NCBI GenBank assembly: GCA_963719495.1
Contig: CAVRCI010000004.1
Coordinates: 256,001-320,000, forward strand
Source: an uncultured Verrucomicrobiae bacterium
GTDB lineage: Bacteria > Verrucomicrobiota > Verrucomicrobiia > Chthoniobacterales > JAATET01
Length of the DNA: 64,000 nucleotides
Direction of reading: 5' to 3'
Of the stretch, positions 20,094 to 58,308 are shown piece after piece; within the stretch, counting starts at the first letter, position 1; each line of letters starts with the position of its first letter. The translations under genes and the position numbers were made by a program. Under the pieces are notes generated by a model that saw nothing but the letters and a program-made list of their open reading frames with translations, was not told the origin of the DNA and ran no database searches.

Positions 20094-20097
20094 ACGG

Positions 20098-20874: not shown

Positions 20875-20897
20875 AAGTAGCTACGCGTTGGTCGGCG

Positions 20898-36218: not shown

Positions 36219-38152
36219 ATGAAAACAGCCCCAAACCTCGGTTCACTCGGACGCCGCCTCACCCTCGGCCTCGCCGCGATCGCGACACTGCTCGCCGCCC
36301 CGCGCGGTTCCGCCCAGACGCCACCCGCCACGCAGATCCTTCTCTTTGCCGGCGACACCGTGCCCGATGGCAATGGCACTTATTCCCTGTTTTTCTCGGG
36401 CGCCGCGCTCAACGACGCCGAGCAGATCGGGTTTCGGGATTTTGCCGGAAACACCACCGGCGGCTCCGCCGACAACACCGTCCTGGTCCGAGCAGGCGGC
36501 TCGACTCCGCCGGTCGTGCTCGCCCGGGAAGGCCAGCCCGCGCCGAATGGCAACGGCAGTTTTCTCTTTATCCAAAATCCGGCCTTCAGTGTCGTGGGCG
36601 CGATGGCGTTCAACGCGGTCACCGAGCGTGCCGAGCCAACTGACGAGACCGCTCTCTTCCGCGTCGACGGCTCCGGCTCGATCGTCGAGATCGTCCGCTT
36701 CGGCGAGGCGGCGCCCGACTCGAGCGGAAACTTTACCGCCTTCGACGATATCCCCGCTCTCAATGAACTGGGACAACTCGCATTCCGCGCGGATATCGAC
36801 CTCGGCGACGGGGGCTCGCGCCTCGATGAAGCCGGCATCTTCATCGGGGAGGGATCGGCTGGACCCGTCCGAATGGCCCGCGATGGCCAGACGGCTCCGG
36901 ACGGCAATGGAGTTTTCACGTCCTTTCACGGCCGAGTTGGGTTGAATGGCCCCGGCCAGGTCGCGTTCGCGGGGTTCGTGACCAGTGGGGGAGCCGATGA
37001 GGACACCGCGATCTTTCGTGGGATCGGAAGCTCCGCCGGACTGACTCAAATCGCCCGAACCGGCGGCCTGGCCCCCGACGGCACCAGTGTTTACCAAATC
37101 GTCCACGGCTCTCCGGCTCTGAACGACGCTGGGAGTGTCGCTTTTTCCTCCTCGTTTGCTGGTGGTGCCGGTGCCGAAGGTCTTTTCCGATCCGACGCCG
37201 CTGGTGGCATCGTCACGATCGCCCGCACGAACGACCCCTCGCCGGGTCGGAACGGCAGCATCGCCGGGATCGAGGGCGACCCCGCCCTGAGCGAGCGGAC
37301 GCCAGAGCAGTTTCGTGGCGCGCTCAATTCGTCCGGGCAGGTGGCATTCGTCGCCTCGCTCACCGGTACGGTTGGCGGGACGAGCGACGACACCGCCGTC
37401 CTCCGGGGCGACGGCGCGGCGGGCAGTCTGCTCGAGATCGCCCGCGAAGGCGGGACGGCACCCGACGGCAACGGAACGTTCGTCGATTTGAGTGGGCGCA
37501 CTTCGCTCCTCGGTTTTCTGGTGAAACCGCTCATCAACGACGCCGGGCGGTGGCGTTCGTCGCCAACTTGGAGAACACCGCCGGAGGAACCAACGACGAC
37601 CGGGGAATTTTCTTCTTCGACGACGCGGCGGGCCTTCTCCAGGTCGTGCGCGAAGGAGACGCCTTCCTCGGCAGCACCATCGTCTCCCTGGGCTTGCTCA
37701 GCGACTCCGGGGGACGGGATGGATTCAACAATTCGGGCCAGGTCGCCTACTCCTTCGGCCTGGCCGACGACCGTCGTGGCTTCGCCCGATGGAACAGCGA
37801 CGGGGCACCACCCACGCCAACGCCCACGCCGAACCCGGCACCCGCGACGCCCCCGGCTCCGTCGGCCGACACAATCCCGCCCGAACTCGCGATCCGCGGA
37901 CGCAAAACCATCGAAACCCTCCGCAAGCGCGTTGTCATCCGCGGCACCGCGAGCGACGCGTCGGGCATCGCGAAGCTCGACGTCAAAGCTCGCGGGGCCA
38001 AGGTCCAGAAGGCCAAAGTGCTCAGCGGAGACCGTTTCAAGGTCGTCCTCCGCGTCTCCAAGGACCGTGGCCGCGTCATCGTGAAGCTCCGCGCTATCGA
38101 CGACGCCAACAACCGCTCGAAATCATCCAAACTCCGCATTCTTCGCCGCTGA
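36219..38152 (+). pseudogene. Secreted NxxGxxAF tandem-repeat protein with a basic C-terminal domain; frameshift at ~37548
   Basis: LNELGQLAF, LNGPGQVAF, LNDAGSVAF, LNSSGQVAF; GGG-C(A)G-GTG-GCG-TTC lacks one base, and restoring it joins ORFs 36219 and 37550. Confidence 0.8.
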
Positions 38153-38207
38153 TCCCCCTCTCACCGGACACCTCATCCGCAAACCCCACTCCGACGCGCC
38201 CACCGAA

Positions 38208-40073
38208 ATGAAATCATCGATCCCCGCCCTGGCCGCCCTGCTCCTTCTTCCCGCGTTGCTGGTGCCGACGTCGCTTCCCGCGCAATCCGCTGCCGCCGGG
38301 AGCATCATCGTCCTCAGCGGTGACCCCGTTCCGGGTGGCGGCACCGTCGAAAGTGTCTTCGAATTCACAGCACCCTCCCTCAACGACGTGGACCAGGTCG
38401 CGCTGAGGCTCGATCTCACCGGCACCCCAGGCGGGGATTCCGACAACGTCGGCATCTATCGGGCCGACGGCGCCTCGCCGCTGGTCGAGATCGCGCGGAA
38501 GGGGCAGACCGCCCCTCGCGGCGACGTGCAATTTGAAAACTTCTTCGGCTTTCTCCCCATCAATAGCGCTGGCCAGATCGCGTTATTCGCCCGACCGTTC
38601 ACTCTTGGGGACAGCAATCTCATCGGTGACGGGACGACCCTGGTCGAGATCGCGCGCACGGGGGATCCGGTGCCCGGCGGAGACGGACAGGTTGGTCTTT
38701 TGTCTACGCCTCTGATCAACAACCTGGGACAGACCGGCGTGGGGGTCTTCCTCAGGAACGCTACTTTCGGAGATCGAGGTGCCTTATACCGCGGCGAGGG
38801 CACGGCGCTCACTCAGATCGTGCGGGACGGGCAGACGGTCCCCGGCGGCAACGGCAGATTCTTTTGCAGGTCTACCCCCTCATTCGTTGGGCCGAATGAT
38901 CTCGGCCAGTTCGCGTTCGAGATCGCGATTGCGGTGGCCACCGGAGGAGCCGATCGCGGGATCTTCCGCGGTGATGGCACGACGCTGGTGAAAATTGCCC
39001 TCGCCAGCGAACCCGTGCCGACCGGCGTCGGACAGTTCATCAGCTTCTCCGAGACGCCGGCACTCGACGAGACCGGACGCACGGCCTTCCCCGCTCGTCT
39101 GACCGGCACCTCGGGCAACGGCGACAATACGGGAATCTACTTCGGAGACGAAAACGGCCTCATCCAGATTGTCCGCGAAGGCCAGGTCGCGCCGACGGGC
39201 AACGGTGCTTTTGGCGACGTGGCATTGACCACGGTCGCATTGAACGAGAACGCTTAGATCGCGTTTCGGTCGGATCTCACCGGCACCGCGCTGGGTGCCG
39301 CCGACGGTCAAGGTGTTTACCGGGCCGATGGCTCCACGCTGCGCGAGATCGTCCGCGCCGGGCAGACGGTGCCCGAGGGGAACGGCACGTTTGCCACCTT
39401 CGAGCGGGACGGCGCTCTTGCGTTCAACAACGCGGGCCAGATGGTCTTCGAGGCCACACTGGTCGGCACCCCCGGCGGCAGCGCCGACGACCGCGGTCTG
39501 TATTTTCACGACGACTCGTTGGGTTTGCGTAAGATCGTGCGCGCAGGCGACGCCCTTCTGGGCAGCACGGTGAGTGATTTTCGCTTTCGCGGCAACTACG
39601 GGAGCTTCGACTCGCCCCACGGCAACGTGGTCAGCGGATTCAACAACTCCGGGAAGGTCGCCTACCGATTCTCTCTCGCCGACGGGCGCAGCGGAGTCGT
39701 GCTCTGGACCCAGTCGGCCGTGCCTCCCACGCCGACGCCAACTCCCTCCCCGAGCCCGGCACCCGCGCCCAACCCGGCCCCGTCGGCCGACGCGATCCCG
39801 CCCGAAATCAGAATCCGCGGACGCAAATCCGTAGAGACCCTCCGCAAACGCGTCGTCGTTCGCGGCAACGCGAGCGACGCATCGGGCATCGCGAAGCTCG
39901 ACGTCAAAGCCCGCGGGGCCAAGGTCCGGAAGGCCAAAGTGCTCAGCGGAGACCGTTTCAAGGTCGTCCTCCGCGTCTCCAAGACCAGCGGCCGCGTCAT
40001 CGTCAAAATCCGCGCCATCGACAACGCCGGCAACCGCTCGAAAAAATCCAAACTCCGCGTCCTCCGCCGTTGA
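38208..40073 (+). pseudogene. Second NxxGxxAF tandem-repeat protein with a basic C-terminal domain; in-frame TAG at 39255-39257
   Basis: INSAGQIAL, NDLGQFAF, NENA*IAF, NNAGQMVF; downstream ORF 39369 is in the same frame. Confidence 0.8.
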
Positions 40074-40125
40074 TCCCCGAATCCGACCGACCTCCTCGCA
40101 CCATCACCAGCCAGCAACCCAACCC

Positions 40126-42051
40126 ATGAAAAAACACCTCGCCTACCTCACCGCCAGCCTTCTCCTGCATTCGCTGCCCGCTTCCGCGCAGACCACCAAC
40201 TGGACCGGCCTCAGCCCCGCCGACGGCAACTGGACCACGGCTGCCAACTGGAACCCGGGCGTCCCGACCACGGGCGATGCCGTCGTCTTCGGTGCCTCGC
40301 CCCGGACCGCGACCACGGTCAACACCAGCTTCTCGCTGGCGTCCCTGAGTTACCTCGCCGCCGCGCCTTCCTACACGACCACGTTCATCTCGAGCCTGAC
40401 GTTTACCGGCGCGGGCGTGAGTAACCTCTCCGGCACAACCCAGAATTTCGACGTGGCCAATTCCCTCCGCTTCAGCAACAGCTCGACCGCTTCCGACGCC
40501 CTTCTCACCGCGCGCGGCTCCGGCTCCGGCGTCGGGCAGTCCGGGTTGATCCGCTTCACGGAAGGGGCCACCGCCGCCTCAGCCAGCATCAGCAACCTTG
40601 GCTCGGCGTCTTTCGGATTCGGCGGTCGGACGAACTTCGGCGGAACGTCCACCGCCGAGAACGCCGTCATCATGAACCAAACCGGTAGCGCCAACGGCGG
40701 CCGCGGCGGGATCACGAACTTCCTCGAGGATTCCACGGCCGGGAATGCGACCCTGACCAACGCGGGGAGCCTCGTCTTTGGCACGGGCGGCGGCAACACC
40801 ACTTTCTCGGGAAATGCCACCGCCAGCACTGCCGCCATCACCAACCAAGCCGCTGTCGGCAGTTCAGCCGTCGCCGCCGGCTTCACCACTTTCTCGGGCA
40901 CGTCCACGGCCGGCAGTGCCAGCATCACCAGCGGCGGAGGCACGGGTGGCAACGAAGGCGGCTTCACGAGCTTCACCGCCACATCCTCCGCGGGGAACGC
41001 TACGATCGTCGCCAATGGCGTCACCGATGCCGGCACGAGCGCGGACAGCAACGGTCGCACCATTTTTCAAGACGACGCCACGGCGGCGAACGCCACGCTC
41101 ATCGCCAACGGGCCGGGCGCGGCGGGCGGACTCGGTGGCGCTATTGTCTTTCGCGACAACGCCACCGGCGGCACCGCCCGCGTAATCGTGAATGCGGGCG
41201 GCGCCTTCGACCTCGACGACGCGAACGCCGCCGTGAGCGTGGGCTCGATCGAGGGAGCGGGGAACTTCCTGCTCTTCACAAACTCCCTCACGACCGGCAG
41301 CAACGGCGTCAGCACCACCGTCTCCGGAATCATCAGCAGCAACGGCCCGGCTACCACCGGAGCCCTCGTCAAGACCGGCACCGGCACCTTGCGATTGACC
41401 GCCAACAACACCTACCGCGGCGGCACGACCGTGTCCGGCGGCACCCTGCTCGTCAGTAATCCGGGAGTCCTCACCGTCGATTCCGGCACCGGCACGGGAG
41501 ACGTGAGCGTGCTCGCCGGCGCCACGCTGGGCGGCACCGGGCGCATCGCTGGAAGCGTGAGCACCACCGGTGCCGCCATCCTCGCACCGGGCGAATCGGC
41601 CGGCCAGCTCAGGATCCAGGGCAATCTCACCCTCTCCTCCGACACGATGTTCGTGATGGAACTCGGTGGGCGCACTCAGGGCGTGGATTACGACTTTCTG
41701 CTCGAGGGCGGCAACGTCGCGCTGATGCTCGACGGCCTGCTCGCCGTCAGTTTCATCGATGGTTTCGAGGCCGGAGTGAATGGCGCCGACACGTTCACCA
41801 TCATCGGCTCGAACCAGACCATCGGCGGAGCATTCGCCAACGTCGCCAACGGCGACCGGCTCGCCACGACCGACGGCCTGGGCAGTTTCCTCGTCACCTA
41901 CGGCGCGACCAACGGCGTCGTCCTGAGCGACTTCCTCCCCGTCCCCGAGCCCTCCAGCGTCCTGCTCATCGGTCTGAGTGCCGTTGCCCTGGGCGCGGGT
42001 GCCTTCCGGCGCAAGCTCGCAACCTGCGGGAAGCCCGCTCGATACTCCTGA
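40126..42051 (+). CDS. PEP-CTERM protein with autotransporter-associated beta-strand repeat
   Basis: Signal peptide; LVKTGTGTLRLTANNTYRGGTTVSGGTL; VPEPSS+TM+RRK. Confidence 0.9.
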   Translation: MKKHLAYLTASLLLHSLPASAQTTNWTGLSPADGNWTTAANWNPGVPTTGDAVVFGASPRTATTVNTSFSLASLSYLAAAPSYTTTFISSLTFTGAGVSNLSGTTQNFDVANSLRFSNSSTASDALLTARGSGSGVGQSGLIRFTEGATAASASISNLGSASFGFGGRTNFGGTSTAENAVIMNQTGSANGGRGGITNFLEDSTAGNATLTNAGSLVFGTGGGNTTFSGNATASTAAITNQAAVGSSAVAAGFTTFSGTSTAGSASITSGGGTGGNEGGFTSFTATSSAGNATIVANGVTDAGTSADSNGRTIFQDDATAANATLIANGPGAAGGLGGAIVFRDNATGGTARVIVNAGGAFDLDDANAAVSVGSIEGAGNFLLFTNSLTTGSNGVSTTVSGIISSNGPATTGALVKTGTGTLRLTANNTYRGGTTVSGGTLLVSNPGVLTVDSGTGTGDVSVLAGATLGGTGRIAGSVSTTGAAILAPGESAGQLRIQGNLTLSSDTMFVMELGGRTQGVDYDFLLEGGNVALMLDGLLAVSFIDGFEAGVNGADTFTIIGSNQTIGGAFANVANGDRLATTDGLGSFLVTYGATNGVVLSDFLPVPEPSSVLLIGLSAVALGAGAFRRKLATCGKPARYS

Positions 42052-42177
42052 CCTTGGCGCATTTCACCACCGACCCATTCCAATTTCCTTCGGGTCCCTG
42101 GATTGCGCTGGTATTTCAAGCTAGGAGGGGCCAAATGGATTGAGGACGTATCATCAGTTCAGAACCGGACAATGCTC

Positions 42178-44027
42178 ATGAAAAAACTCATCTTCTCCTT
42201 AACGACCGCAGCGCTGGCTTCGACGGTCACACCTTCGGTTCGAGCGGCGGAAATCTGGGACGGCGGCGGCAATGATTCCAATTGGTCGACGGCGCTCAAC
42301 TGGGACGAGGGCGTTCCCGATCCGGGAGACAGCGTCACGTTCGGAACAGCTTTTACGAACGTGGGAACTGACAATATCTCTCTTGCCGGGGATCGTTCGG
42401 TCGGAACCCTCACGTTCGATAGTGGTCCCACGAACGTCATTCTTTCGTCCTCGAATCTCACGGTCAACGCCGGCATCAATCGAATCTCGCCCGCTGACAC
42501 GGAGTCGATCGTGCTCAGCACGGTGACTTTGCCTTCGGACATTGTCGTCAACAACGCCGGTGGTTCGCTGGATCTGTTCGGAGCGATTTCCGGGGTTGGT
42601 CGGATCACCCAGAACGCGACCTCGGCGACGCCGATCAATTTGCTGTTCGGAGGGAACAACTCAGCCTGGACCGGCGGGCTGACCCTGGGTGCCGCTCCGG
42701 GAGGGAGTATCGTCAACGTCAACGCGAATGGACTCGGCACCGGCAGCGTCATCTGGGAGGCGGGGGCGAGCGGACCTACGGTCAGTTTTTCGGCAACGCC
42801 GACCAGGCGATCGGCAATGATTTCACGGTGAACGGCGACCGAACGATCATTCCGTTCAACAACAATAGCACCGGAAAGACCGTCGCATTCAACGGCGACA
42901 TTGGCGGCACCTCCATCTCGACGATTCGGTTCAACGCTCGCCAGGGCGGCATCAGCGGGATCACGACGGAACTCAATGGAGTGAATACCAACGCCGTAGC
43001 TGGCAGCCAAATGGTCTTCCAAGGCTCGAACGACGACGGTTCCGGGCTGGGAAACACCTACGTGATCGGCAACAGCGCCGCGCTCGGCTGGGACCGCATC
43101 ATTTTGGGGGAAGCTTCGACGACTTCGGACGAGGTGGCATTTCTCTACAAGGACGGCGTCGACATCGCGAACGCAATCGAATTGAACGAAGCCGATCCGG
43201 GACGCGTGACCATGGGGGTCACGGGCACCGGTGCTGCGGCGACTCAGAGCGGCGGGATCATTCTCGGCAACTTCGGCCTTGATCTCTCCAAGGATTACCA
43301 GATCACGGCGGGCAGCGACAGCACCTTCACGGTCTCGGGCACCATCACGACCGCCGACGCTGGCGACACGCTCAACGTCACAAAAATCGGCGACGGCACG
43401 GTCGCTCTCACCAGCGCGACCGGCAATGATTACCGCGGGACGACGACCATCTCGGCGGGGACGCTTCTCGTGAACAACACGACGAATTCCGGCACCGGCA
43501 CCGGCGCGGTAATTGTCGCATCCGGCGCGACCTTCGCCGGGAGCAACCTCATCGCTCCGACCGCGGACAACGACGTGACCGTCAACGGCACGCTGGCTCC
43601 CGGGGCGCTCGACAACGGCGCTGGCAGAATGGAGTTCGATCTGAGCGGTGCGTCGAAGCTCGCGTTTGGCGGCGGTTCGGTCCTTGCCTTCGACCTCGGC
43701 ACGACGAGCGATCTGATCGACTTCACCCTCGCGGGGGATTGGCTGACCGGATCGGGTGACGCCACGCTGGCTCTGACGCTCGGCGCTGGGTTCGATTACT
43801 CGCTGACCTACACCGTTTTCTCCGATGTGACGACGACGGGCTTCACCTTCGCGGCGATCACGGGATACGACACGGCGAACTTCGACGCGGACTTTGCGAA
43901 GATCGGCAACGACTACCGAGTCTCGTTCACCGCGGTCCCCGAGCCCAGCCCGGCGATGCTCGGTGCCTGCGGCCTCCTGATCCTGCTCGGCGTCGCCCGC
44001 GCGCGCCGTCGGTCGCGGATGGCGTGA
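42178..44027 (+). pseudogene. PEP-CTERM beta-strand repeat protein, frameshifted near 42762-42790
   Basis: Signal peptide; KIGDGTVAL..NDYRGTTTISAGTL; VPEPS+TM+RRR; one extra G in the G5 run at 42762-42766 would join the two ORFs. Confidence 0.8.
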
Positions 44028-44059
44028 GGTTGCCTCGGCCAGCGCGAGAGCTACCGGGG

Positions 44060-44634
44060 GCAGGGGTGAGATATTGAAAGACGACGCGAGGTCTGATCGT
44101 CCCTTCGCCCGCGTGGTGGAAGAGTGCGACGTAGGTGTGGAGCTGATTGTCGAGGGCGAGGATCGCGCGTTGATACGGGTCGGTGTCGGGGAGGTCGGCG
44201 GCTTGCGTGGTTTCGGCGGCGGCGCGGATGGCGTCGAGGTGCGGGCGGAGGTCGTCGAAGCTGAGGCGGGTGGGCTTCTCGGTCGGCTGCCCGGCGAGCG
44301 CGAGCACCTGCGGGTGGACGATGCGAATGACGGGGAGGGTGTCGGCGGTCGCCGGATCGGTTAGGTGGGTGACGAGCCAGTGGAGGGGTTGAAAGTCGAA
44401 AGTCGAAAGTTGAAAGTTGAGAAGTGGATTGCGGTTTCGCCGGGAGAGTGAGGGTGGCTTTGCCGCTGAGGAGCGTGAGGGTATTGCGAGCGAGGGTGTC
44501 GAGGGGCTGGAGGCGGCCCCCGGCTTGAATCGGGATCTCGGCGAGCGGGGTGGGGGCGGGGACGCGGAGAGCAGGATGAAGGCGGTCGCGAGCAGCGCGA
44601 CGGCGGTGAGGGCTGACGTGGGGGAGCGGAGCAT
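44060..44634 (-). pseudogene. ccsA: N-terminal fragment of CcsA-type cytochrome c biogenesis protein with two frame changes
   Basis: TM start, then LAEIPIQAGGRLQPLDTLARNTLTLLSGK in one frame and WL...TDPATADTLPVIRI.HP...RLSFDDL in another. Confidence 0.6.
44390..44425. repeat. Heptamer repeat (GAAAGTY)n within the ccsA fragment
   Basis: TGAAAGTCGAAAGTCGAAAGTTGAAAGTTGAGAAGT. Confidence 0.85.
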
Positions 44635-44738
44635 GACGAACCTGACGGGAACGAGGTTGTTCCAAATCGGGCGGAGAGAGTCGATCCAGCGTGAACCCGT
44701 TTGAGCAGTGACCCGGCGTTCGCTGGATTCTCGGAAAC

Positions 44739-45383
44739 CTATTCCTCGACCCGGTCGCCAGTGATCGCGACCTCGTCGAATTCAGCGGTGTCGTTGAACG
44801 ATCCGAAGCCCAGGCACCCGACCGGATAGCGCGTGTCGTTTGCCGTCAGCACGGGCTTTTCCTGATCATCCACCCAGACCGAGATCGCGCCGTTGGCTTC
44901 GTGGGACAACCGGATCGTCTGCCAGCCGACCCCGAGAGCTGGTTTGGGCGACTCTTCGAGTTGGATCGGGGTTCGGCCGGTGGCTTCGACTCGCATGATG
45001 ACGCTGTGCGTCTTCCCGTCGGAATCGTTGGACACGTGGGCGTAGTAGAAATGTTCTGGATCCTCGTAGCCAAAGATCAGCACGAGATCCCGACCCACTT
45101 TGCTGGTTGGCTCCAGTGATCGCGCAATGACCTCGAGCGTCGCGTTTTCCCAATGTCCGGGGGCGAGGGCATACGTGGTTGGTCCACGAACGGGGCCTTT
45201 GATTTGACCCGCCTTCGTGATGCGGAGAATCCCGTCGCGCTGCTCCCAGTGTCCCGCCGGAACCAGCTCCAGGTCGCTTTTTCCCTCGAAATCGGAACGC
45301 CATTCCGCCGCCGATGCCAACGGCCCGAGGATCACGGCTACCGCGATGGCCAAGATTGCAAGCGGGCTACGCAATGCGACCAT
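44739..45383 (-). CDS. Secreted beta-sandwich (DUF1080/ConA-like) protein
   Basis: Signal peptide; LIFGYED..HFYYAH, G.LGFGSFND..EFD. Confidence 0.65.
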   Translation of the reverse strand: MVALRSPLAILAIAVAVILGPLASAAEWRSDFEGKSDLELVPAGHWEQRDGILRITKAGQIKGPVRGPTTYALAPGHWENATLEVIARSLEPTSKVGRDLVLIFGYEDPEHFYYAHVSNDSDGKTHSVIMRVEATGRTPIQLEESPKPALGVGWQTIRLSHEANGAISVWVDDQEKPVLTANDTRYPVGCLGFGSFNDTAEFDEVAITGDRVEE

Positions 45384-46323: not shown

Positions 46324-46491
46324 TCTTCAGTTCTACCGCCGCTTCAACTCGGAATCAACTCCACCGGGACAATCGGAGTTCCTCGAGTTCCTCGACGTGG
46401 CGGACAGGCCGACCCGAACCGGATGGACCGATCCGATCCGGGGCGAGCCCGGTGTTCAGCGGCCAAGCGGAATGCTCCGGGCCCTCGCCGC

Positions 46492-47394: not shown

Positions 47395-47661
47395 GAATGG
47401 CACTGTTTTAAGCGAATCGTCGGCACGACTGTAGCGGCGGTCTGTGACCGCCGGAGCCATCAAACTCGGGTGCGCAAAACCCAGCGAGATGGTTTGGCGG
47501 CGGTCACAGACGCGCCGCTACAACTTCGCGCTCACCCCACCAACACCGCCAGCGTCGATCGAAAAGACCCCGGTCGCCGATGATCTCGCGCGGGACGGCC
47601 TCCAAGCCGTCCTCACCGCCTTGCGCTCTTCACCGAAAATCGGCTGAAAACAGTGCCATTC
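47395..47661. mobile_element. MITE copy 1 (267 bp) with terminal inverted repeats and an 11-bp TSD
   Basis: GAATGGCACTGTTTT...AAAACAGTGCCATTC; GGCTCCGACTC at 47384-47394 and 47662-47672. Confidence 0.9.
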
Positions 47662-48384: not shown

Positions 48385-49647
48385 CAGGGCCGACGCATCT
48401 AAAAATTGAGGAGGTGCAGGAGGAAGTCGTGATCCCAGGCTGCGACGAGTTGTTTGGTCTTGATGCTGCGTTTTTTGGACTTTTCGCGAGAGAGCAGGTT
48501 TAGGGCGAGGCGGCGCAGGGTGGCGAGATTCTCGGCGGCGTGAGCGGTTCGAGCGCGGGAACCATCTTCGCGCAGGATGACGTCCAAGACCCAGTGGCAG
48601 GAGTTTTCCACGCCCCAATGTCCACGGACGGCTTGAGCGAAAAGTCCGACGTCGAGGGGCAGGCTGCTCAGGAAGTAGCGTCTTTCCACGCTGATTTGAC
48701 CTTTGATTTCGCGGCTGGATTCGACCATTCCGACGCTCTGCAGCCCTTCCCATTGGCTGATGTCTGCGAACCAGTCGATGGCGACGCTTTGGAAATAGCG
48801 CCGGATTTCCAAGCGCCCGTGGCCTTTGTCGACGGTTTCCAGGAATGCGAAAGTGGGAGCGCTTGGTGGTTTCTTCGTGGATGGTTTGGGCACTGGAGGG
48901 CTCTGGAGCTCGCGATCAAATTCGGCATCGAGGAAGCTTTTGACTTCCTCATGGACGGTTTGGTGATTGCCTTTGAGAGCGAGAACGTAATCGGCGTCGG
49001 CCTCGATGATTTCTCGGGCGATCTCTTTCTGGCACCCCATCGCGTCGGTGCTCACGATGCAGCCACGCAGTTCCAACGCTCGCAGCAGCGTGGGAACCGC
49101 CGTGATTTCGTTGGTTTTGTCGGGCACTTCGAGCTGCCCCAGGACAAGTCGATTGCTGGTTGCCCAAGCATTGACGATGAAGCGCACATTCCCGCCGTCC
49201 TGGCAGGCTGCGCGGAGGGCTTTGCCGTCGACGGCGACGATTTCCCGGTCGATGTGTTCGCGCACGCTCTGCGTCCACCTCATGAAGCACTCGTGAAAAC
49301 TCGCCGGATTGATCAGCGAAAACACGCGATTGAACGTGTCGTGGCTGGGGATGCCGTTGGGCAACTTCAGAAACGTTCGGAACCATTTTTCCTTGGCCCG
49401 ACCGAACTCTTCCATGTCGTAGAAAGACGTGCCCGCGCACAAAAGCGTCGAGATCGCGATCACTAGAATGTCGCTCAACTCATGGTAGCGAGTGCGCGAT
49501 ACTCGCGGATCTTCTATGCGTTTGAACTCTTCGATCAGGCTTTTTTGGATGGGATGCGTTTCGGGCATCTCCTCCATCTACGCACGGGAAAATATAGTAC
49601 CAGCCCAAACTTCCTCCATCGCGATCTTTTTTGATGCGTCGGCCCTG
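48385..49647 (-). mobile_element. ISAs1-family insertion sequence
   Basis: Perfect 15-bp TIR CAGGGCCGACGCATC; 10-bp TSD TGATGATGGC at 48375-48384 and 49648-49657. Confidence 0.95.
48399..49577 (-). CDS. ISAs1-family transposase
   Basis: DPR, GIPSHDTF, AVDGK, NEI, DAMGCQ, LKGNH, RGHWGVENSCHWVLDV..ED. Confidence 0.95.
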   Translation of the reverse strand: MEEMPETHPIQKSLIEEFKRIEDPRVSRTRYHELSDILVIAISTLLCAGTSFYDMEEFGRAKEKWFRTFLKLPNGIPSHDTFNRVFSLINPASFHECFMRWTQSVREHIDREIVAVDGKALRAACQDGGNVRFIVNAWATSNRLVLGQLEVPDKTNEITAVPTLLRALELRGCIVSTDAMGCQKEIAREIIEADADYVLALKGNHQTVHEEVKSFLDAEFDRELQSPPVPKPSTKKPPSAPTFAFLETVDKGHGRLEIRRYFQSVAIDWFADISQWEGLQSVGMVESSREIKGQISVERRYFLSSLPLDVGLFAQAVRGHWGVENSCHWVLDVILREDGSRARTAHAAENLATLRRLALNLLSREKSKKRSIKTKQLVAAWDHDFLLHLLNF

Positions 49648-50057
49648 TGATGATGGCCGCGCCGAGAATCCCGGCGAGTACGATGACTATGACCAATTCG
49701 ATGAGGGTGAACGCGCGATTGCCAACGTGATGGGAAGGGCCTCTGCGGTTCATGAAAGAGAGTTTTCCGGGGAACTCCCCGAATTCCGATGACTATGTGA
49801 CCGTCGGTGTTCGCCGGAGAATCGCTGGCGAAGCGCTGGTGAGGATCGCGCGTGATGATCGCGCGCGAGCTGGACACGGGGACGGTCATGGATATGAATG
49901 TAAGGTGCCTCACGTGGGATGCTTTGAGAGCAGGAATATTCTCCTGACCCCTCCGCCTGCCTCTGCCTGATCCCCCCGCTGCTTGTCTGCGGCGATTGGG
50001 ACATAACGCCGACGGCTTCGAGTCAACAGTCGGAATTCATCGGCTGACCTCTTCCGC

Positions 50058-50245
50058 TGACCCCCGGTTCCGAAAAGAGTGTTCCGAAAAGAGTTGCGTT
50101 TTGCACACTGACCCCCGGTTCGTGACCTGACCCCCGGTTCGTGACCCCCGGTTCGCCCGTTTTGCACACTGACCCCCGGTTCGCCCCACCCTGATCTGTC
50201 ACCCATGTCCTCGGTCAATCTGTCACCCATGTCCTCGGTTCATAC
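50058..50245 (+). repeat. Cluster of short direct repeats: TGACCCCCGGTTC x5, GTTCCGAAAAGAGT x2, ATCTGTCACCCATGTCCTCGGT x2
   Basis: Read directly; irregular spacing. Confidence 0.85.
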
Positions 50246-50331
50246 CCCGCTATTTCTTCGATATTTGCCCGCCACACTATTCCAGATAGGCTTGATTAAA
50301 CTCCACCATCTGGCTGACCAACCCCAAAAAA

Positions 50332-52893
50332 ATGCACACTCAACGCGTCCTGAAACCGCTTTCCTACTTCGTTCTCCCGGCACTCATTACGCTGATTATC
50401 TACGGAGCACCCGCTCGCGAGATCGCCCTACCCGAGAAAATGGCGGGACCGTGGAGCACGACAATCGACGTATTCCGCTCGAACGGGGCGCTTTGGTATC
50501 AGGAAGATCTAATCTTGAAGTTCAAACCCACCCGCGATGCCGGTTTCTCGATCCGCTTTATCGCCCCCGCCGCCAAAGGAAAGGGCACTTTCGACGACCG
50601 CGGTCGTTTCCGGCAATCCACCCGGGCGCTGGTTCTCACGGAAACGGACGGCTCCGAGATGTCGAAAGTCGTCACGACCGGCAGATGGAAGCAGCGAGGC
50701 AGGACTCTCGCCCTGCGCGGCAAACGAAAGGTCACCACCGAGTCCGGAGAGAAATGGACCGAAAAATTCACCCAGCGTTTCATCGTCAAAGGAAAGCGTC
50801 TCTTCCGAATCGACAAAATCTCGGGCAACCCGCCCACCAAAATCGTGTTTCGCAAGGGCAAACGCCGAACCGCCAATGGCCGCGGCGGAGCGACCGATCC
50901 CGGAATCTCCAAGATCCTCGCGGTCTCGCCCGCGCCAAACGACTTCGGCGTCAGCCCGACCACCCAGGTGCTCATCGCCATCGATAATGTCGCCGCGATT
51001 GATCCGTCCACGCTCGTTCTCAGCGTCGGCAACCAAGTCGTCACCCGGTCCAGCAATCCGCCGCTGACATTCGTCGGCAACCAAGCCCGTTTCACCCCGG
51101 CCACCGCGCTCGACTCTCCCGCACAAACCATCCAAGCCGAGATCACCTACCAGGACTATTCCGGTCGTATTCACTCGCTCTCTTGGGAATTTGAGCTGGC
51201 CCGAACGCCCGAGGTCGCGCCGAATGTCACCGTATTCGGGTCTCCGCAGACTCAGGCCTCCGGTCAGGCGCTCTCTCCCGCCGCCACCGCGGTCGCCGCC
51301 CGAGCCGCGTTTCCACCCGCGACGGCGAAAGCCGTCTTGGCTCCGGGCACCTCGTGGGAACTGACCTCGATCAGCGCCAACGAAATCGAGATCAGCTACA
51401 CCGGCACCCCTCCCGTATTCGCCGTGGACGGTCTGATCTGCAACGGCGCGCCTCCGACCGCCAACGAGATATTCTACCGCCGCATCACCGCCACCAGCGA
51501 CAATGGAGTCGGCACGATCACGCTCACAACCGTCGACGTCCCGCTGACCGACTTCATCATCAACGGATCACTCCATCTCACCGGTGATGGATTCATCGTG
51601 CTCGATTCGACCGTCGCGTCTTCGTCCGCGCTGCTGCCACCCAATACAAAACATAGCGCGCTACTCGGCTCTTTCGACCTCTCCGGTTCCTTCGGCTGGG
51701 ACGCGGGCACCTTCGGAGAGATTTACCGGGACGTCACACTCGCCGATGTCGGCGTGGCTCGGGCATCTCTGGCCGAAGCCGGATACGAGATTTCACCCTA
51801 CCTCCGCGTTTCCTTCGACATTGAGGACAGCCAACTCGAACGCCTCACCGCAATGGCCGCCGCCGGTGTCCGTGCCAGTCTGATTCCGCGATTGCAGTAT
51901 TCCGCATCGTCGAGCCTCTCCGACTCACGCGAACTCCACAATCGGGACGTATTTCGCCTGATCGGTTTCATTGGAATCGTACCGATCTGGATCGAACTCG
52001 ATTTCACCCTCACCGCCAATCTCGCCGCAACCATCAGCGGAAGCGGAGACTTCCGCACCGGCTTCTCGCGCCGAGGTTCCCTTCGAACGTCCGTGACCTA
52101 CATCCGCGGCATCGAACCGATCTGGACGTCCTCCGCTCGGGGCACTCTTTTCGAGGAAGCCCTCGGATTCGATTCGTCGGAATACCAGGTCGACGGCGAC
52201 GGCACGATCGATTTGGGCCTTGAGGGTCGACTCGACGTTCTGCTCGACAGCCTCGCCGGCGTGTTCGTTTCCACCGAGCCGACCGTTGGGACCACCACGA
52301 AATGGAAAATCGAGAACGGAGACCTCGAAGGAATAATCTGGGAAAACCACGCATTTGCGCGCCTGTCCGCCGGACTCTCCATCGCTTTCACCACCATTGA
52401 CAACGGCTTCCCGAAAGCTGATCTCAGCCTTTTCGAAAGGAACTGGTGCGAAGCGTTCCCCAACCCCGCTCCCGAAGAACTCATTATCAGCCCAATAGAG
52501 CTGTCGGATCGCTCGGGAATTCATCTGGGACCGGACGGACCCGGTCGCGGGATTTCTTATCCTGGCGAATACGTCGGTGATCTTTTTGTCGATGTCTGTC
52601 CGATTCAGGACGCAACCTACCAATGGTTCGATGCGCTTGGAGCAATTCCCGGCGAAACGAATTTATCCTATCGGCTTCCGCCGCGCGACCAACGGCGAAC
52701 CGGCGATGCTCCAGCAAGAATACACGTCGAAATCTCAACTTCCGATGAAGAATTCGCAGAGCCTTTCCGCGAAAACGAGCCTACCGGCCCGGGAAGCGGT
52801 GGCGGAAGGCCCGGCGATGAATTCGCAGAGCCCTTTCGCGAAGACGAGCCTACCGGCCCGGGAAGCAGTGGCGGGAACCAAGGCGAGGGATGA
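50332..52893 (+). CDS. Large secreted multi-domain protein (basic N-terminal domain, Ig-like domain, acidic C-terminal repeats)
   Basis: Signal-like N-terminus; ILAVSPAPN..GV Ig-like start; two (D/E)EFAEPFRE.EPTGPGS repeats. Confidence 0.7.
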   Translation: MHTQRVLKPLSYFVLPALITLIIYGAPAREIALPEKMAGPWSTTIDVFRSNGALWYQEDLILKFKPTRDAGFSIRFIAPAAKGKGTFDDRGRFRQSTRALVLTETDGSEMSKVVTTGRWKQRGRTLALRGKRKVTTESGEKWTEKFTQRFIVKGKRLFRIDKISGNPPTKIVFRKGKRRTANGRGGATDPGISKILAVSPAPNDFGVSPTTQVLIAIDNVAAIDPSTLVLSVGNQVVTRSSNPPLTFVGNQARFTPATALDSPAQTIQAEITYQDYSGRIHSLSWEFELARTPEVAPNVTVFGSPQTQASGQALSPAATAVAARAAFPPATAKAVLAPGTSWELTSISANEIEISYTGTPPVFAVDGLICNGAPPTANEIFYRRITATSDNGVGTITLTTVDVPLTDFIINGSLHLTGDGFIVLDSTVASSSALLPPNTKHSALLGSFDLSGSFGWDAGTFGEIYRDVTLADVGVARASLAEAGYEISPYLRVSFDIEDSQLERLTAMAAAGVRASLIPRLQYSASSSLSDSRELHNRDVFRLIGFIGIVPIWIELDFTLTANLAATISGSGDFRTGFSRRGSLRTSVTYIRGIEPIWTSSARGTLFEEALGFDSSEYQVDGDGTIDLGLEGRLDVLLDSLAGVFVSTEPTVGTTTKWKIENGDLEGIIWENHAFARLSAGLSIAFTTIDNGFPKADLSLFERNWCEAFPNPAPEELIISPIELSDRSGIHLGPDGPGRGISYPGEYVGDLFVDVCPIQDATYQWFDALGAIPGETNLSYRLPPRDQRRTGDAPARIHVEISTSDEEFAEPFRENEPTGPGSGGGRPGDEFAEPFREDEPTGPGSSGGNQGEG

Positions 52894-53039
52894 ATTCGCC
52901 GAGAGATTCGTGGAACTCCCGAATGGCCTGGAAACCGGTGGAAGCGGGGGTGGGGACACTGGTTAGACTCTTCCCACGAACAATGAACCCGCCAAATCCT
53001 TCCTTGCCCCACTCCACTTTCGGCTCGAAGCTTTCAAAG

Positions 53040-53264
53040 ATGGACTGTCGCGGAATCATCACCATCGAGCCGGGCAAGCGGGGCGGGAAGTCTTGCGTTC
53101 GCGGGATGCGGATCACCGTTTACGACGTGCTCGGCTGGCTCTCCGCCGGAATGTGTCACGCCGAAATCCTCGAGGATTTCCCCGACCTGAACGCCGACGA
53201 CATTCGTGCCTGCCTCGCGTTTGTCGCCGATCGTGACCAACACCTCGTTGGAGGCGTCGCTTGA
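53040..53264 (+). CDS. DUF433 antitoxin-like protein
   Basis: ITIEPGKRGGKSCVRGMRITVYDVL..L..G...EIL.DFP.L...DI.ACL. Confidence 0.9.
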   Translation: MDCRGIITIEPGKRGGKSCVRGMRITVYDVLGWLSAGMCHAEILEDFPDLNADDIRACLAFVADRDQHLVGGVA

Positions 53265-53597
53265 AGATCCTCTTCGATCAATCATAATCTCAGCCACCGC
53301 CTCATCCAACGACTGGGCGACATCTTCCCGGATTCCACTCACGTCCGACAGATCGGCATGGAGAGCGAAGATGATCTCACGATCTGGGAATACGCGCGCG
53401 AACATGGCTACATCATCGCTACGCAGGACTCAGATTTCGCAGACTTTAACCGCTTACGGGGCGCACCACCAAAGATTCTTTGGCTTCGCTGTGGCAACCA
53501 GACGGTGACGGAAATCGAACGCCGAATCCGCACCTACTTTCCCCGAATCCAATTTCTGGAAACCGACCCGAAGATCGATGTCGTTGAAGTCTGGTAG
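53261..53597 (+). pseudogene. DUF5615 PIN-like toxin, frameshifted by a 4-bp duplication
   Basis: Repaired read MKILFDHNLSHRL...HV...DD..IWEYA....IIATQDSDF...PPKILWLRCGN; ATCA-ATCA at 53277-53284. Confidence 0.85.
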
Positions 53598-53736
53598 ATC
53601 CCCCACCTGCCTCCTCAGCCGATGCCTGTTAATCGGAACTTCACTGGAGTAAAAAGGCAGGGAAGCGCATGAATAGTAGGTTTGCAGCGATTTTTGGCTT
53701 CCAGCTACTGGCTACAGCGTGAATGGGGTCAGTCGA

Positions 53737-54001
53737 GAATGGCATTGTTTTAAGCGGAACGTCGGCAGGGCTGTAGCGGCGGTCTGTGACCGCCGGTGCC
53801 GTCAGACTCGGGTGCGCAAACCCAGCGAGATGGTTGGCGGCGGTCACAGACGCGCCGCCACAACTTCGCGCTCACCCCACCAACACCGCCAGCGTTGATC
53901 GAAAAGACCCCGGTTGCCAATGATCTCGCGCGGAACGGCCTCCAAGCCGTCCTCACCTCCTTGCGCTCTTCGCCGAAATTCCGCTTAAAACAGTGCCATT
54001 C
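53737..54001. mobile_element. MITE copy 2 (265 bp)
   Basis: GAATGGCATTGTTTTAAGCGGA...TCCGCTTAAAACAGTGCCATTC; highly similar to copy 1; TSD GGGTCAGTCGA with its right copy split by IS110. Confidence 0.9.
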
Positions 54002-54089
54002 GGGTCAGGCGGCATGAAAGGCTGATGAATAGAGCTTTGCTGGGAAGTGGGGCCCGGAGAGCCTGATAAAATGGATGGTGTAAGTTGGG

Positions 54090-55301
54090 GTGATGAAAAC
54101 CCAACGAAAAAGCCTACCGACGGAATCGAGCTTCATTGGCATCGATTATCACAAGAGATACAGCGTCTATTGCGTGGTCGATAGCCACGGCGAGGTGCTC
54201 GGCCAAGGGCGCATCGAGCACGCGATCAGCGGAGATTTTGGGCGGCTCGTCGAGCGGTGGCCGGGCTGCCGGATCGTCTTCGAAGCGAGCATGAACTGGC
54301 ACTGGCTCTACGAGATTCTCGAGCAGGTGATGCCCGCCGAGAACATCGTGTTGGCCAACCCGTTCAAGACGCGGATCATCGCCGAGGCTCAAATCAAGAC
54401 CGATAAGATCGACGCCCGAGCGTTGGCCAATCTGTTGCGGGCCAATTTGATTTCGAGCGTCCACATCCCCAGTCGCGAGACCCGCGACATCAAGAACGTG
54501 CTGCGCCAGCGTTGTTTCTTCGTGCGCCAACGCACGATGCTGCGCAACCGCATCCACCGCTTACTTGGTGGGCAGCACGAACTCAAACTTCCTGTCTGCA
54601 GCGATCTCTTCGGCAAGAAGGGGCTGAGTTTTCTGGAAAATCTCGAACTCCCGGAACCAGCCGGAATGCTGCTCACCCAGCAACTCGCCCTCCACAACGA
54701 GTTGGCCGCTCGCATCCGCCAAGACGAGGCAGCGCTCAAAGATCTCATGAGCCAAAGCCCCGAGCTCACCCACGTCTGCAGTCTCCCCGGGATGGGACCC
54801 ATCCTCGCAGCGGTTGTCGTCGCCGAGATCGACGACATCTCGCGCTTTGCCCCCGCGCAGAAGCTCTGCGGCTACGCGGGACTCTGCCCGGCGACGAGCA
54901 GCAGCGGCGGTAAGACCTACCACGGACGCCTGCTGCCCCAGTGCAACAAATGGCTGCGTTGGGCCTTCGTCGAGGCTGCCTGGGTAGCCGTTGGCTGCTC
55001 GCCCTACTTCGGCGACTACTACAAAAACAAACGCGCTCACGGCAAGAAAGCCAACACCGCCATTCTGGCCACCGCCCGCCGGATGGCCCGCATCACCTGG
55101 AGCCTCTTGACCCAGGGGCGTTCCTACACGAACTTTCCTGAATCCCAAAAGCTCCGAAGCCAGCGCCGTGACGCGGACGGGCAAACGCCTTCCCGATCCG
55201 GCCTGGCCAAGGAAAAAATTGAAGACATGAAAACCCCGAAAACACGCCAGGGACGCAAACGTCGATCTTCTCGAAAACAATTTCCCCAGCCGCTCCAATG
55301 A
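54090..55301 (+). CDS. IS110-family transposase/recombinase
   Basis: DEDD: GIDYHK, VFEAS, KTDKIDA; Tnp20 region SLPGMG, YAGL.P..SSSGG. Confidence 0.95.
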   Translation: MMKTQRKSLPTESSFIGIDYHKRYSVYCVVDSHGEVLGQGRIEHAISGDFGRLVERWPGCRIVFEASMNWHWLYEILEQVMPAENIVLANPFKTRIIAEAQIKTDKIDARALANLLRANLISSVHIPSRETRDIKNVLRQRCFFVRQRTMLRNRIHRLLGGQHELKLPVCSDLFGKKGLSFLENLELPEPAGMLLTQQLALHNELAARIRQDEAALKDLMSQSPELTHVCSLPGMGPILAAVVVAEIDDISRFAPAQKLCGYAGLCPATSSSGGKTYHGRLLPQCNKWLRWAFVEAAWVAVGCSPYFGDYYKNKRAHGKKANTAILATARRMARITWSLLTQGRSYTNFPESQKLRSQRRDADGQTPSRSGLAKEKIEDMKTPKTRQGRKRRSSRKQFPQPLQ

Positions 55302-55570
55302 ACGACTGGTTGGTCGCTAAGTCTTAGCACTTAGTCGGCGCACCTTGGGTCAGGATGGAGGGCTGGGGATCTGATCGCCACAATGGATGGGGGCCAGAAG
55401 TGCCCGCCCCGCAGAGAAGTGTGATTCCAGCATCGCTATCGTCCCAAGTTTACAGGCTCCTTCCCTCGATGTAAGAGCCCGCGCTTTTCCCTGCCCTGAT
55501 GGTCACCCATTGGGCGCTTTCTTCTGCGTTCCCCGCCCCACTCGGGCCAAGAACCCTCTAAATTAGACCG
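55302..55570 (+). ncRNA. Candidate bridge/seek RNA of the IS110 element (boundaries approximate)
   Basis: Contains GGGTCAG (55347-55353, left target+core) and CAGAGAAG (55412-55419, left donor+core). Confidence 0.6.
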
Positions 55571-55953
55571 TTGACAGCCCTTCGACCCTTTTTTCAGAGA
55601 AGTCGATCATTCGTGACCAGTTTGCGAACAGGGTTGCTCCTTCATGGTGAGGCTTCGCCAGGACGGGGTCGCTCTTTTTGCAATAGCACAGCATTGGCCG
55701 GACAAATCCGCGGAATGACCAAGCGATCCCACCCCCTGACCTCCCAATCCTTCGCGATAACCAGGCGAATCCTCGTGCAGAACTCAGGAATCCACGCTCA
55801 GTGATCTAAGGTGACCGACCCCCGTCACCGGAATCGGAGCGGACTTGTCGAAATCGATCGACTTCCTCCCTTATGCTCGGAGTAAACCAAACGCTCTCTG
55901 CGATTCAAACCGGAAAGAGGTCGGGGTGCGCGCGAGACGACCAGGTTCTCCGT

Positions 55954-58308
55954 TTAGCGACGAATGATGCGGAGTCTGAGGGTCTTGGAGCGGTTGCCTG
56001 ACGGGTCGAAGGCGCGGACTTTGATGAGGTTTTTTCGTTTGTTCTTCCTGGGGCGAACGATGGCTTTCCAGCGGTCGGTTCCGCGGGTTTTCTTGAATCC
56101 GCGTTTGCCGGGCACTTTGAATTCGACCCGCGTGATGCCCGATGCGTCGGTGGCGGTGCCGCGGAACACAATGCGGCGTCGGGTCGACTCGACGCGGCGG
56201 CGACCTTTTACGCGAACAATCGGGCGGGTGACGTCGGGGGTGGGTGCGATGATGGCGGTGGGCGGGAGGACGAAGACGTAGGCGGCTCCGGAGTCGGTCG
56301 CGGTGTTGTCATTGATGGCGAGGGGATTGTTGACGCCGATGGCGTTGCTGTCCTCTTCGGCGGCGCCGACGATGGCGGTCGTGCCCGAGATGGCGACGGC
56401 TCCCCCGAAGCGGTCGTCGGGGTCGGTGTTGGCGGATTTGAGATAAGTTTGTTGGGACCAGGTCGAGCCGGAGCGCACGAAGAGGTAGGCGGCACCGGAC
56501 TCGGGGTCGGTGTTGTCGAGTTGATTCCCGTCGATGCCGACGGCATTGCTGTCCTCGAAGATGCTGCCGACTATGAGATTCCCGCCCGAGAGTGCGAGGG
56601 AGCGGGCGAATTGGTCGCCATCCCCGGCGTTCGACGCTTTGAGATAAGCCTCGGGGAACCAGGTCGGGCCACTTCGGACGAACGTGTAGGCCGCGCCGGC
56701 GGCTTCGGCGCTGTTGTCGGTCTGGTTGCCGTTGATGGCGGTCGCGGTGCTGTCCTCGAAGGGAGCCCCGACGACGAGAAGATTGCCCGAGATGGAGAGC
56801 GAGGTGCCGAACTGATCACCCTGGCCGGAATTGGAGGCTTTGGCGTAGGCTTGCTGGACCCAGTTGGTGCCGTTGCGGGTGAAAATGTAGACTGCTCCGG
56901 CTCCGGGAGCGGTGTTGTCGGTCTGGTCACCGCCGATTCCGGTGGCTCCGCTGTCTTCGAGGGGGGCGGCGACGGCGAGGATGTCGCCGGAGATTGCGAC
57001 CGTGCTGCCGAAGCGGTCGTTGGCGGCGGGATTCGACGCTTTGAGGTAGGCTTGCTGACTCCAGGCGGCGCCATTGCGAACGAAAACGTAGGCCGCTCCG
57101 CTGCTGGCGGCGGAATTGTCGTTCGGGTTGCCGTTGACATCGGTTGCGTTGCTGGCCTCGAAGCGCGCGCCGACGACGATGGTGTCGCCGGAGATGGCGA
57201 CGGATTGACCGAATTCGTCGCCGCCGTCGGAATTAGACGCTTTGAGGTAGGCCTGTTGGGACCAGGCGGCTCCGTCGCGAACGAAGACGTAGGCGGCTCC
57301 GGCGGCGGACGCGCCACTGTTGTTTTGATTGCCGTCGATGATGTCCGCGTCGCTGTCTTCGAGATTTGCTCCGACGACGGAGGTGTTGCCGGAGATGGCC
57401 ACCGAAGCGCCGAATAGATCGGTGTCGTCGGTGTTCGAGGCCTTGAGGTAGGCCTGCTGGGTCCAGGTCGTGCCGTTTCGGACGAAAACGTAGACCGCAC
57501 CGGCAGAATTCAGACCGTTGTCGGTCTGGTCGCCACCGATCCCTTCGGCGTTACTTTCCTCGCCGACGGCAGCGACGATGGCGGTGTTGCCCGAGATTGC
57601 GACGGAACCGCCGAAAAGGTCGCCTGAGTCGGGGTTGGAGGCTTTGAAGAGGGCCTGCTGAGCGACGGGGTCGATGGTGATGGGGTAGCGGGCGGAGCGG
57701 TCGTCGACTTCGATGGCGAAGCCGGCGGGGTGGGCGATGAATCGGGTCGGCAGCGTCCGGCCTTCGGCGTCCCAGGCGAGGAGGCCGGAGTAACTGAGGA
57801 CGGGGGCCCCGGAGTCGTTGGTGAATTGGACCGAGTCGGTGGCGACGAGCGGCGTGAGGTTGCCGCGGGTGGAGAGGGCAAGGATGAGCGGGCGACCGGT
57901 GGCGTCGTCGTCGGTGCGCTCGGTGAGGGTCCAGCCTTGCTGCAGGCCGTGGGGGTGGTTGACGAACCACTCGGCGAGGGTGTCGGAGTGGCGGCGGGCC
58001 AGTCGATTTTCGTCGGCGGCGGCGGCGGGTTCGGGTTGTGAGCCGACGAGTGCGAGGCCCCAGGTCCAGTCACCCCGGTCGGGCTTCGCGAGGAAGCCGT
58101 GTTCGTCAAAGGTGAGGGTCCAGCCTTGAGCGGGATTGCGAGCCGCGTGAGAGCCGTCGGATTCGGAGGTCATGCGGTGCCGCCAGAGGTCGTGGGCGGA
58201 GCGGAGGCCCGACAAGTCGGTGGGGGTGACGTGGGTGGCTGCGAAAGCCGCCGGGAGGCAGGCCAACATAATGAGCGGGAAGATTATCTGCATGGCGGGG
58301 AGGGGCAT
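55954..58308 (-). CDS. Secreted FG-GAP (integrin-like beta-propeller) repeat protein with a basic C-terminal domain
   Basis: YPITIDP, seven D.FG.SVAISG...VGA..E..GAAYVF..W.QQAYLKASN repeats; ends NRSKTLRLRIIRR. Confidence 0.9.
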   Translation of the reverse strand: MPLPAMQIIFPLIMLACLPAAFAATHVTPTDLSGLRSAHDLWRHRMTSESDGSHAARNPAQGWTLTFDEHGFLAKPDRGDWTWGLALVGSQPEPAAAADENRLARRHSDTLAEWFVNHPHGLQQGWTLTERTDDDATGRPLILALSTRGNLTPLVATDSVQFTNDSGAPVLSYSGLLAWDAEGRTLPTRFIAHPAGFAIEVDDRSARYPITIDPVAQQALFKASNPDSGDLFGGSVAISGNTAIVAAVGEESNAEGIGGDQTDNGLNSAGAVYVFVRNGTTWTQQAYLKASNTDDTDLFGASVAISGNTSVVGANLEDSDADIIDGNQNNSGASAAGAAYVFVRDGAAWSQQAYLKASNSDGGDEFGQSVAISGDTIVVGARFEASNATDVNGNPNDNSAASSGAAYVFVRNGAAWSQQAYLKASNPAANDRFGSTVAISGDILAVAAPLEDSGATGIGGDQTDNTAPGAGAVYIFTRNGTNWVQQAYAKASNSGQGDQFGTSLSISGNLLVVGAPFEDSTATAINGNQTDNSAEAAGAAYTFVRSGPTWFPEAYLKASNAGDGDQFARSLALSGGNLIVGSIFEDSNAVGIDGNQLDNTDPESGAAYLFVRSGSTWSQQTYLKSANTDPDDRFGGAVAISGTTAIVGAAEEDSNAIGVNNPLAINDNTATDSGAAYVFVLPPTAIIAPTPDVTRPIVRVKGRRRVESTRRRIVFRGTATDASGITRVEFKVPGKRGFKKTRGTDRWKAIVRPRKNKRKNLIKVRAFDPSGNRSKTLRLRIIRR

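Follow-up and report, generated by a model that had tools for sequence, protein, structure and literature searches.

A basic immunoglobulin-like domain at the C-termini of exported proteins in one Verrucomicrobial family, a candidate electrostatic surface anchor

By what means Verrucomicrobia, in which no type IX secretion system (T9SS) is recognised, display soluble enzymes and adhesins at the cell surface is an open question, raised for Akkermansia (PMC13524802). The window analyzed here, a stretch of 64,000 nucleotides from the genome of an uncultured Verrucomicrobiae bacterium, raises a related one: what does a strongly basic, immunoglobulin (Ig)-like domain do at the end of three exported proteins with different passengers? 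The first-pass annotation of the window had noticed this domain, referred to below as the basic Ig tail, and had quoted a residue pattern for it. As shown, the pattern was present in all three copies, and each copy ended at the stop codon. Copy 1 (37868..38152, + strand, stop included) has 94 amino acids (aa), 27 of them Lys or Arg, with a net charge of +18 and an isoelectric point (pI) of ~11.7. Copy 2 (39789..40073, +, stop included) has 94 aa, 29 Lys and Arg, and a net charge of +22, and copy 3 (55954..56235, −, stop included) has 93 aa, 33 Lys and Arg, and a net charge of +27. Identity to copy 1 was 84% for copy 2 and 42% for copy 3. The passengers differed as claimed, matching TIGR05002/DUF7453 (NxxGxxAF repeats) in two proteins and FG-GAP_2 in the third.

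A profile from the three window copies alone, a search that the first-pass annotation had proposed, gave 40 further matches at E<0.02 in the source genome (4.54 Mb, 98.6% complete). On iteration, it converged on 49 reading frames (E≤7e-9; next match, E 0.04), which is far above chance. All 49 copies end at most 23 residues from the stop codon; 31 are flush with the last strand and 27 finish in Arg-Arg (RR). Every copy has a net charge between +11 and +27, and the pI was 10.4–12.0 in the 16 copies computed, whereas a value of +11 over the final 95 residues is attained by only 13 of 631 other signal-peptide-like proteins. The passengers are acidic, with a median charge of −4.2 per 100 aa. The 45 passengers scanned include propellers (NHL, FG-GAP, DUF7453, DUF4394, RCC1/DUF5122, and BNR), M10 and M12 peptidases, a GDSL lipase, a 5′-nucleotidase, a pectate-lyase-like/CBM96 protein, and an ice-binding-like adhesive domain; a cyclophilin and a glucose/sorbosone dehydrogenase-like protein also carry the tail. 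By a crude test, used without a dedicated predictor, a signal peptide was called in 35 of the 49 tail proteins against a background of 529 of 2,020 (26%). Among the 14 misses, three show a signal peptide by eye, six are the downstream parts of broken genes in which the upstream part carries one, and the remaining five have passengers of the same exported kinds. No recognisably cytoplasmic passenger was seen among the tail proteins. Two proteins consist of a signal peptide and the tail without any passenger (C9:206908 and C6:138088). Of the 49 genes as assembled, at least six and possibly as many as 11 carry a disrupting frameshift or stop. The tail contains no hydrophobic helix, and the terminal, transmembrane-free placement on signal-peptide proteins described for the window was borne out across the genome.

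The fold of the tail was analyzed using copy 3 for both structure prediction and structure search. The predicted model is an all-beta sandwich with a mean predicted local distance difference test score (pLDDT) of 95.9, and its best structural matches are Ig-like domains, in agreement with the earlier guess of an Ig-like module. Glucodextranase domain B (1ulv/1ug9) was matched with a template modelling (TM) score of 0.77, a Z score of 10.8, and a root-mean-square deviation of 1.9 over 84 residues; other matches were the sulfite-oxidase dimerisation domain and CbhA modules. By sequence, the profile reaches the repeats of SiiE (2yn3), MpAFP RII (4p99), and Bap (7dm0), and it finds 22,268 representatives with tandem-repeat proteins at the top. 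At E≤0.01, Big_7 (PF17957) was matched by 18 of 48 members and Glucodextran_B (PF09136) by 11 of 48, with a best E of 1.3e-7; the three window copies score below all curated Pfam cut-offs, and the other members are known by their E-values. ESM Atlas gave Big_7/Glucodextran_B clusters at 0.88–0.91 and unnamed clusters below 0.9, and PF27194 is listed on one tail-bearing homologue.

Charge distinguishes the tail from these relatives. In 150 top-scoring array proteins with 694 repeats, the median net charge was −4, and only one repeat reached +8: in P0064, where it comes last after neutral repeats. Furthermore, 121 tails (all 49 from the source genome, unfiltered, and 72 from the relatives G006 and G010 chosen at net ≥+8) were compared column by column with 286 neutral repeats. 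The best-conserved residues, P5, G26, W56, A73, and G78, are common to both sets. In contrast, Lys plus Arg amounted to 23.8 per domain in the tails compared with 3.3 in the neutral repeats, and Ser plus Thr to 12.4 compared with 26.7. The change from Ser/Thr to Lys/Arg lies at outward positions of every strand, and Lys and Arg interchange at most of them; by standard Ig topology, both sheets would be charged. Lys or Arg makes up at least half of the residues in 23 of 91 columns but reaches 80% in only two, and the comparison revealed no invariant motif or residue specific to the family. Such spread charge without a fixed motif would point to binding by bulk charge rather than through one recognised motif. 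Known bacterial Ig repeats (Big_7, Glucodextran_B, Big_6, and Big_13) share the fold and the conserved core residues with the tail. They are neutral or acidic, rich in Ser and Thr, and mostly internal in tandem arrays, whereas the tail is basic and nearly always single and last. The tail is thus a charge variant of a common bacterial Ig-like repeat and not a new fold. The first-pass annotation had not recognised it as a named family and had regarded a match to a characterised domain as contrary evidence; the clan is indeed known (Big_7/Glucodextran_B), but the basic terminal variant has no named model. Separately, the last repeat of three tandem Ig-array proteins (P0095, P0127, and P0136) is a distinct variant that contains Trp-Trp-Asn and finishes in Phe-Arg/Cys-Trp; it may be a further specialised end repeat.

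The basic tail is expanded at the level of one Verrucomicrobial family. Fourteen of 16 family relatives have 16–78 matches each (E≤1e-5), whereas no match at E≤1e-5 was found in either of the two genomes belonging to genus g3 (completeness, 97% and 81%), as confirmed at E≤1e-3, and 23 of 24 genomes of other families likewise have none at E≤1e-5. In a wider set of 400 order genomes, 24 of 384 outside the family match at E≤1e-7, with 1–5 matches each among the 13 candidates scored per genome. Among 300 genomes of the phylum, there was one other match at E≤1e-10, through neutral internal repeats. A scan of named genomes gave one Verrucomicrobial genome plus one weak match, a plasmid search gave no match, and a word-indexed protein search, which is insensitive with this profile, gave 22 matches. 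Position was similarly maintained in the relatives. In G006, 47 of 50 domain records are terminal, one is a cut duplicate, and two are acidic internal repeats (part of 82 matches, the weakest included). In G010, 32 of 33 records are terminal and one is cut (all 31 matches, with a few duplicates from overlapping loci). In G008 and G013 together, 24 of 27 copies lie within 25 residues of the end and one at 29, with net charges of +5 to +18; two extra internal or tandem copies occur in proteins that also end in the domain. The strictly C-terminal position expected from the window therefore holds for all 49 copies of the source genome, but not for these extra copies or for the neutral internal repeats outside the family. 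Of the 15 best loci outside the family, six are internal and neutral, eight are terminal at net 0 to +8, and one is terminal at +20. The last is in G345, a genome of another family that keeps two basic terminal copies; no machinery lies beside the one whose surroundings were read. The basic tail was probably gained in one event.

Comparison of tails and passengers indicated that tails have been shuffled between passengers. Copy 1 shares 66–76% identity with tails that follow NHL, FG-GAP, DUF7035, and unknown passengers, but only 26% and 36% with those on the two other NxxGxxAF-type passengers. Within the genome, one FG-GAP passenger is paralogous to a protein with PEP-CTERM (44% identity over 296 aa), and a dehydrogenase-like passenger to a protein without a tail. 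Among the best 120 homologues of the FG-GAP passenger in the window, two end in the basic tail, ~25 in a Verrucomicrobial domain with an F-x-R-L finish, four in SLH, one in a dockerin, and two in an IPTL-like membrane tail (one read by eye). The script left 91 untagged, many having other lineage-specific end modules or none. The NxxGxxAF proteins of relatives vary similarly: some finish with the basic tail, others with PEP-CTERM (G030) or an F-Y-R end domain (G021), and others have no end module. These results upheld the suggestion of an interchangeable module, which is exchanged between passengers and takes a position that known anchors fill in homologues. Other exported proteins of the source genome have basic end domains unrelated to the tail (C2:356338-357789, L146; C13:577069, L145; C11:195717, L154; C3:159890, L139), with net charges of +21, +19, and +16 in the three measured, which suggests repeated gain of basic ends.

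The alternative occupant of this slot, which we name the F-x-R-L end domain, is near-neutral and ~110 aa long. It is the last domain of exported Verrucomicrobial proteins, stands in the same position as the tail on FG-GAP and NxxGxxAF passengers, and occurs on five exported proteins of the source genome (C13:747588, C3:84005, C2:682846, C2:692219, and C13:40063; L030, L149, L150, and L151). In the order sample, it was found in 27 of 41 genomes with up to 40 copies, including seven other families. Profile comparison revealed no homology to the basic tail. Replacement of one by the other was rejected, as both coexist in genomes. The F-x-R-L domain is possibly the type behind the T9SS-like end domain of Akkermansia Amuc0953.

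We propose that the basic Ig tail is a non-covalent electrostatic surface anchor, a reading to which we give an even balance of probability. Acidic signal-peptide proteins with the tail as their last domain would be exported by Sec to the periplasm and would cross the outer membrane through a general pathway; the genome encodes a type II secretion operon. The uncleaved tail would then bind a polyanion by bulk charge, in a salt-sensitive manner. The candidate ligand is an anionic polymer of the cell's own surface (lipopolysaccharide, capsule, or exopolysaccharide), and the passengers would accordingly be extracellular. This proposal is drawn from the charge without a motif, the passenger-less proteins and tandem copies, the unrelated basic ends, and the slot shared with known anchors, and the conservation pattern favours surface binding over a sorting signal. 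The first-pass annotation had offered a sorting or export tag and a surface-binding tag side by side; the latter fits the conservation pattern better, and no dedicated translocon or protease was found for the former in the searches of candidates and gene neighbourhoods described below.

A precedent for such an anchor is CBM37 of Ruminococcus albus, a lineage-restricted module with 51–102 copies per genome on catalytic and non-catalytic proteins, which swaps with dockerin, is sometimes in tandem, and is reported to attach enzymes to the cell surface (PMC4081043). The tail resembles CBM37 in lineage restriction, copy number, varied passengers, anchor swapping, and occasional tandem or internal copies (PMC4081043), although the CBM37 host is monoderm and the tail host diderm. 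The tail profile did not match the end of R. albus RUMAL_RS21070, the one CBM37 copy compared (net +5), which we took as the GH11-CBM22-GH10-CBM37 xylanase of PMC4300822. By this comparison, the two would be analogous, not homologous. PEP-CTERM with exosortase shows the same position and many-to-one pattern as the tail (PMC3237569). In the source genome, the pattern-based count of PEP-CTERM proteins (44, with two exosortases) is similar to that of tails, and one FG-GAP family has both forms. A tripartite signal of the PEP-CTERM type was ruled out for the tail, which is a folded 90-residue soluble domain without a motif and a transmembrane helix.

The chief rival to the anchor proposal is modelled on T9SS. 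The C-terminal domain of T9SS substrates has an Ig-like fold. This domain (Por_Secre_tail, PF18962/TIGR04183) and the Fibrobacter basic terminal domain are, as the tail is, basic, last, and carried by many unrelated Sec-signal proteins of a diderm (PMC6851124 and PMC3079729). By analogy, the tail may be an export address, in which a periplasmic receptor or an outer-membrane translocon, type II or other, reads the folded basic Ig domain and possibly cuts it off. We regard this as doubtful yet possible; its narrower form, in which the tail is the address label of an undescribed T9SS-like export and display route in Verrucomicrobia, derived from an ordinary Ig repeat, with a family-specific receptor and 16–80 substrates per genome, we consider unlikely. 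Several observations weigh for an address or against a plain anchor. Many passengers share one tail that is nearly always single and last, and the flush (31 of 49) and RR-ending (27 of 49) termini are as a terminus-reading signal would have them. T9SS C-terminal domains are basic as well, and anchoring had at one time been considered for the Fibrobacter domain before a T9SS signal was proposed in its place (PMC6851124). For Akkermansia, a predicted end domain has prompted the suggestion of a T9SS-like system (PMC13524802). Near-neutral terminal copies at eight of the 15 loci in other families, together with some family members of only +5 to +7, mean that the last position may be older than the charge.

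Some of the searches for matches and machinery spoke against the address. None of 48 members matched Por_Secre_tail, TIGR04183, or TIGR04131 at E≤0.01 (Pfam and NCBIfam). Alongside many generic Ig folds, the Ig-like domains of PPAD and PorU appear among the best structural matches of the tail, and solved T9SS end domains were not recognised among the best matches listed, a result that weighs neither way. The PorV family was not found in the 98.6% complete genome, with a positive control search. Genome searches for SprA and Por_Secre_tail were blank, as were their control searches; PorK/L/M/N/U were not searched for, and a heuristic screen for large barrels gave no SprA-sized candidate. The genome does carry the type II secretion operon (K, M, D, E, F, and a pseudopilin recognised), a TpsB-like barrel, BamA, and two TamA-like Omp85 proteins. 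Secretins are present in 40 of 41 genomes, a distribution different from that of the tail. A co-occurring transporter had been anticipated for the tail, but none of the four candidates followed its distribution in a search that covered these candidates and not whole proteomes; the TpsB-like barrel, an N-domain-less secretin, and an orphan barrel were rejected as dedicated transporters on this ground. Charge complementarity was also rejected, since possession of the tail does not go with a consistently more acidic GspC or GspD. No helper gene was seen repeatedly next to the 49 copies or around seven low-copy loci of other families. Moreover, the lack of a family-specific invariant residue and the existence of passenger-less proteins and internal copies argue against a read signal. 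One signal-peptide protein of 521 aa (C4:143101-144663, L153) has two secretin-like stretches but lacks N domains; it occurs at full length in four g1 genomes, and G006 and G010 have partial forms.

Two further explanations place the tail elsewhere. It might bind outside anionic matter, such as clay, humic matter, extracellular DNA, uronic or sulfated polysaccharide, or other cells, thereby fixing released enzymes and propeller lectins to a substrate. The charge evidence would serve this equally well. Peptidases, a lipase, a nucleotidase, the pectate-lyase-like/CBM96 protein, and the ice-binding-like adhesive domain would suit it as passengers, and CBM37 binds many polysaccharides as well as cells (PMC4081043). 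However, homologues fill the same slot with binders of their own envelope (SLH, PEP-CTERM, and IPTL-like), and a released polycation would first meet the anionic surface of its producer; we hold this explanation to be more improbable than the export address. The least probable of those weighed here is that the proteins stay periplasmic with the tail on peptidoglycan or anionic lipid, or that the tail is a folding or solubility partner of acidic passengers without any anchoring. A Sec-type signal by itself delivers to the periplasm only, one passenger has a tail-less paralogue in the genome, and the cyclophilin, 5′-nucleotidase, and glucose/sorbosone dehydrogenase-like passengers have relatives that we take to be periplasmic. 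Nevertheless, most of the passenger families carry surface anchors elsewhere, and bacterial Ig repeats are typical of extracellular adhesins.

The three window genes differ in integrity. NxxGxxAF/DUF7453 repeat gene 1 (36219..38152, +) encodes a signal peptide, the repeats, and the tail but lacks one base near 37549. The intact 653-aa orthologue of G003, which has the same basic tail, aligns in two frames with a switch at 37550 and identities of 55% and 66% over the two segments; this site has almost no cover in sequencing run X1. Gene 2 (38208..40073, +) has the same organisation, with an in-frame TAG at 39255-39257 that is bridged without difference by a contig of run X1, which is possibly from the source sample and hence not independent. 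Only the FG-GAP gene (55954..58308, −), encoding 784 aa with a signal peptide, seven FG-GAP_2 repeats, and the tail, is intact. The three signal-peptide proteins of the first-pass annotation thus all end in the domain, but both NxxGxxAF genes are interrupted as assembled. Its Pro/Thr linker also needs qualification: it is long before copy 1 (37808..37867, +; Pro/Thr in 14 of 20 residues) and, as a Pro/Thr/Ser linker, before copy 2 (39714..39788, +; 12 of 20), but short before copy 3 (6 of 20), and many other copies have almost none. PEP-CTERM, the other common end tag, was seen on neighbouring secreted proteins as described, namely on a PATR-repeat protein (40126..42051, +) and an HpiC1-like protein (58535..59350, −). 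Positions 35100-59400 make up a variable island in which genes for exported proteins are grouped and several frames are broken, among them also a PEP-CTERM gene (42103-44027) and a fragment (35736-36215); transposases of the ISAs1 type (48402-49577, −) and IS110 (54090-55301, +) lie in it too. The island also encodes an 853-aa signal-peptide protein (50332-52893, +) whose N-terminal region is rich in Lys and Arg and which matches nothing in Pfam or NCBIfam. Elsewhere in the window, a row of helix-turn-helix-like regulators, presumably LuxR-type, shares an unusual N-terminal region (17460-21644, +) and belongs to a cluster of 17 members in the genome.

The basic Ig tail is therefore real and family-wide, and although it is built on a very common domain, it is undescribed in the sources searched; no paper describing the family was found in that literature, while subscription papers and supplements could hold a mention. 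It is a small, foldable, and easily expressed module with a built-in control in the neutral Ig repeat of its origin, which makes binding versus export directly testable. Under either reading, its profile flags 16–80 likely exported proteins per genome in this family. If the tail is an export tag, it would mark a new pathway. If it is an anchor, it would extend non-covalent retention of the CBM37 kind to a diderm, and it would be a case of a spacer domain turned into an anchor by surface charge alone.

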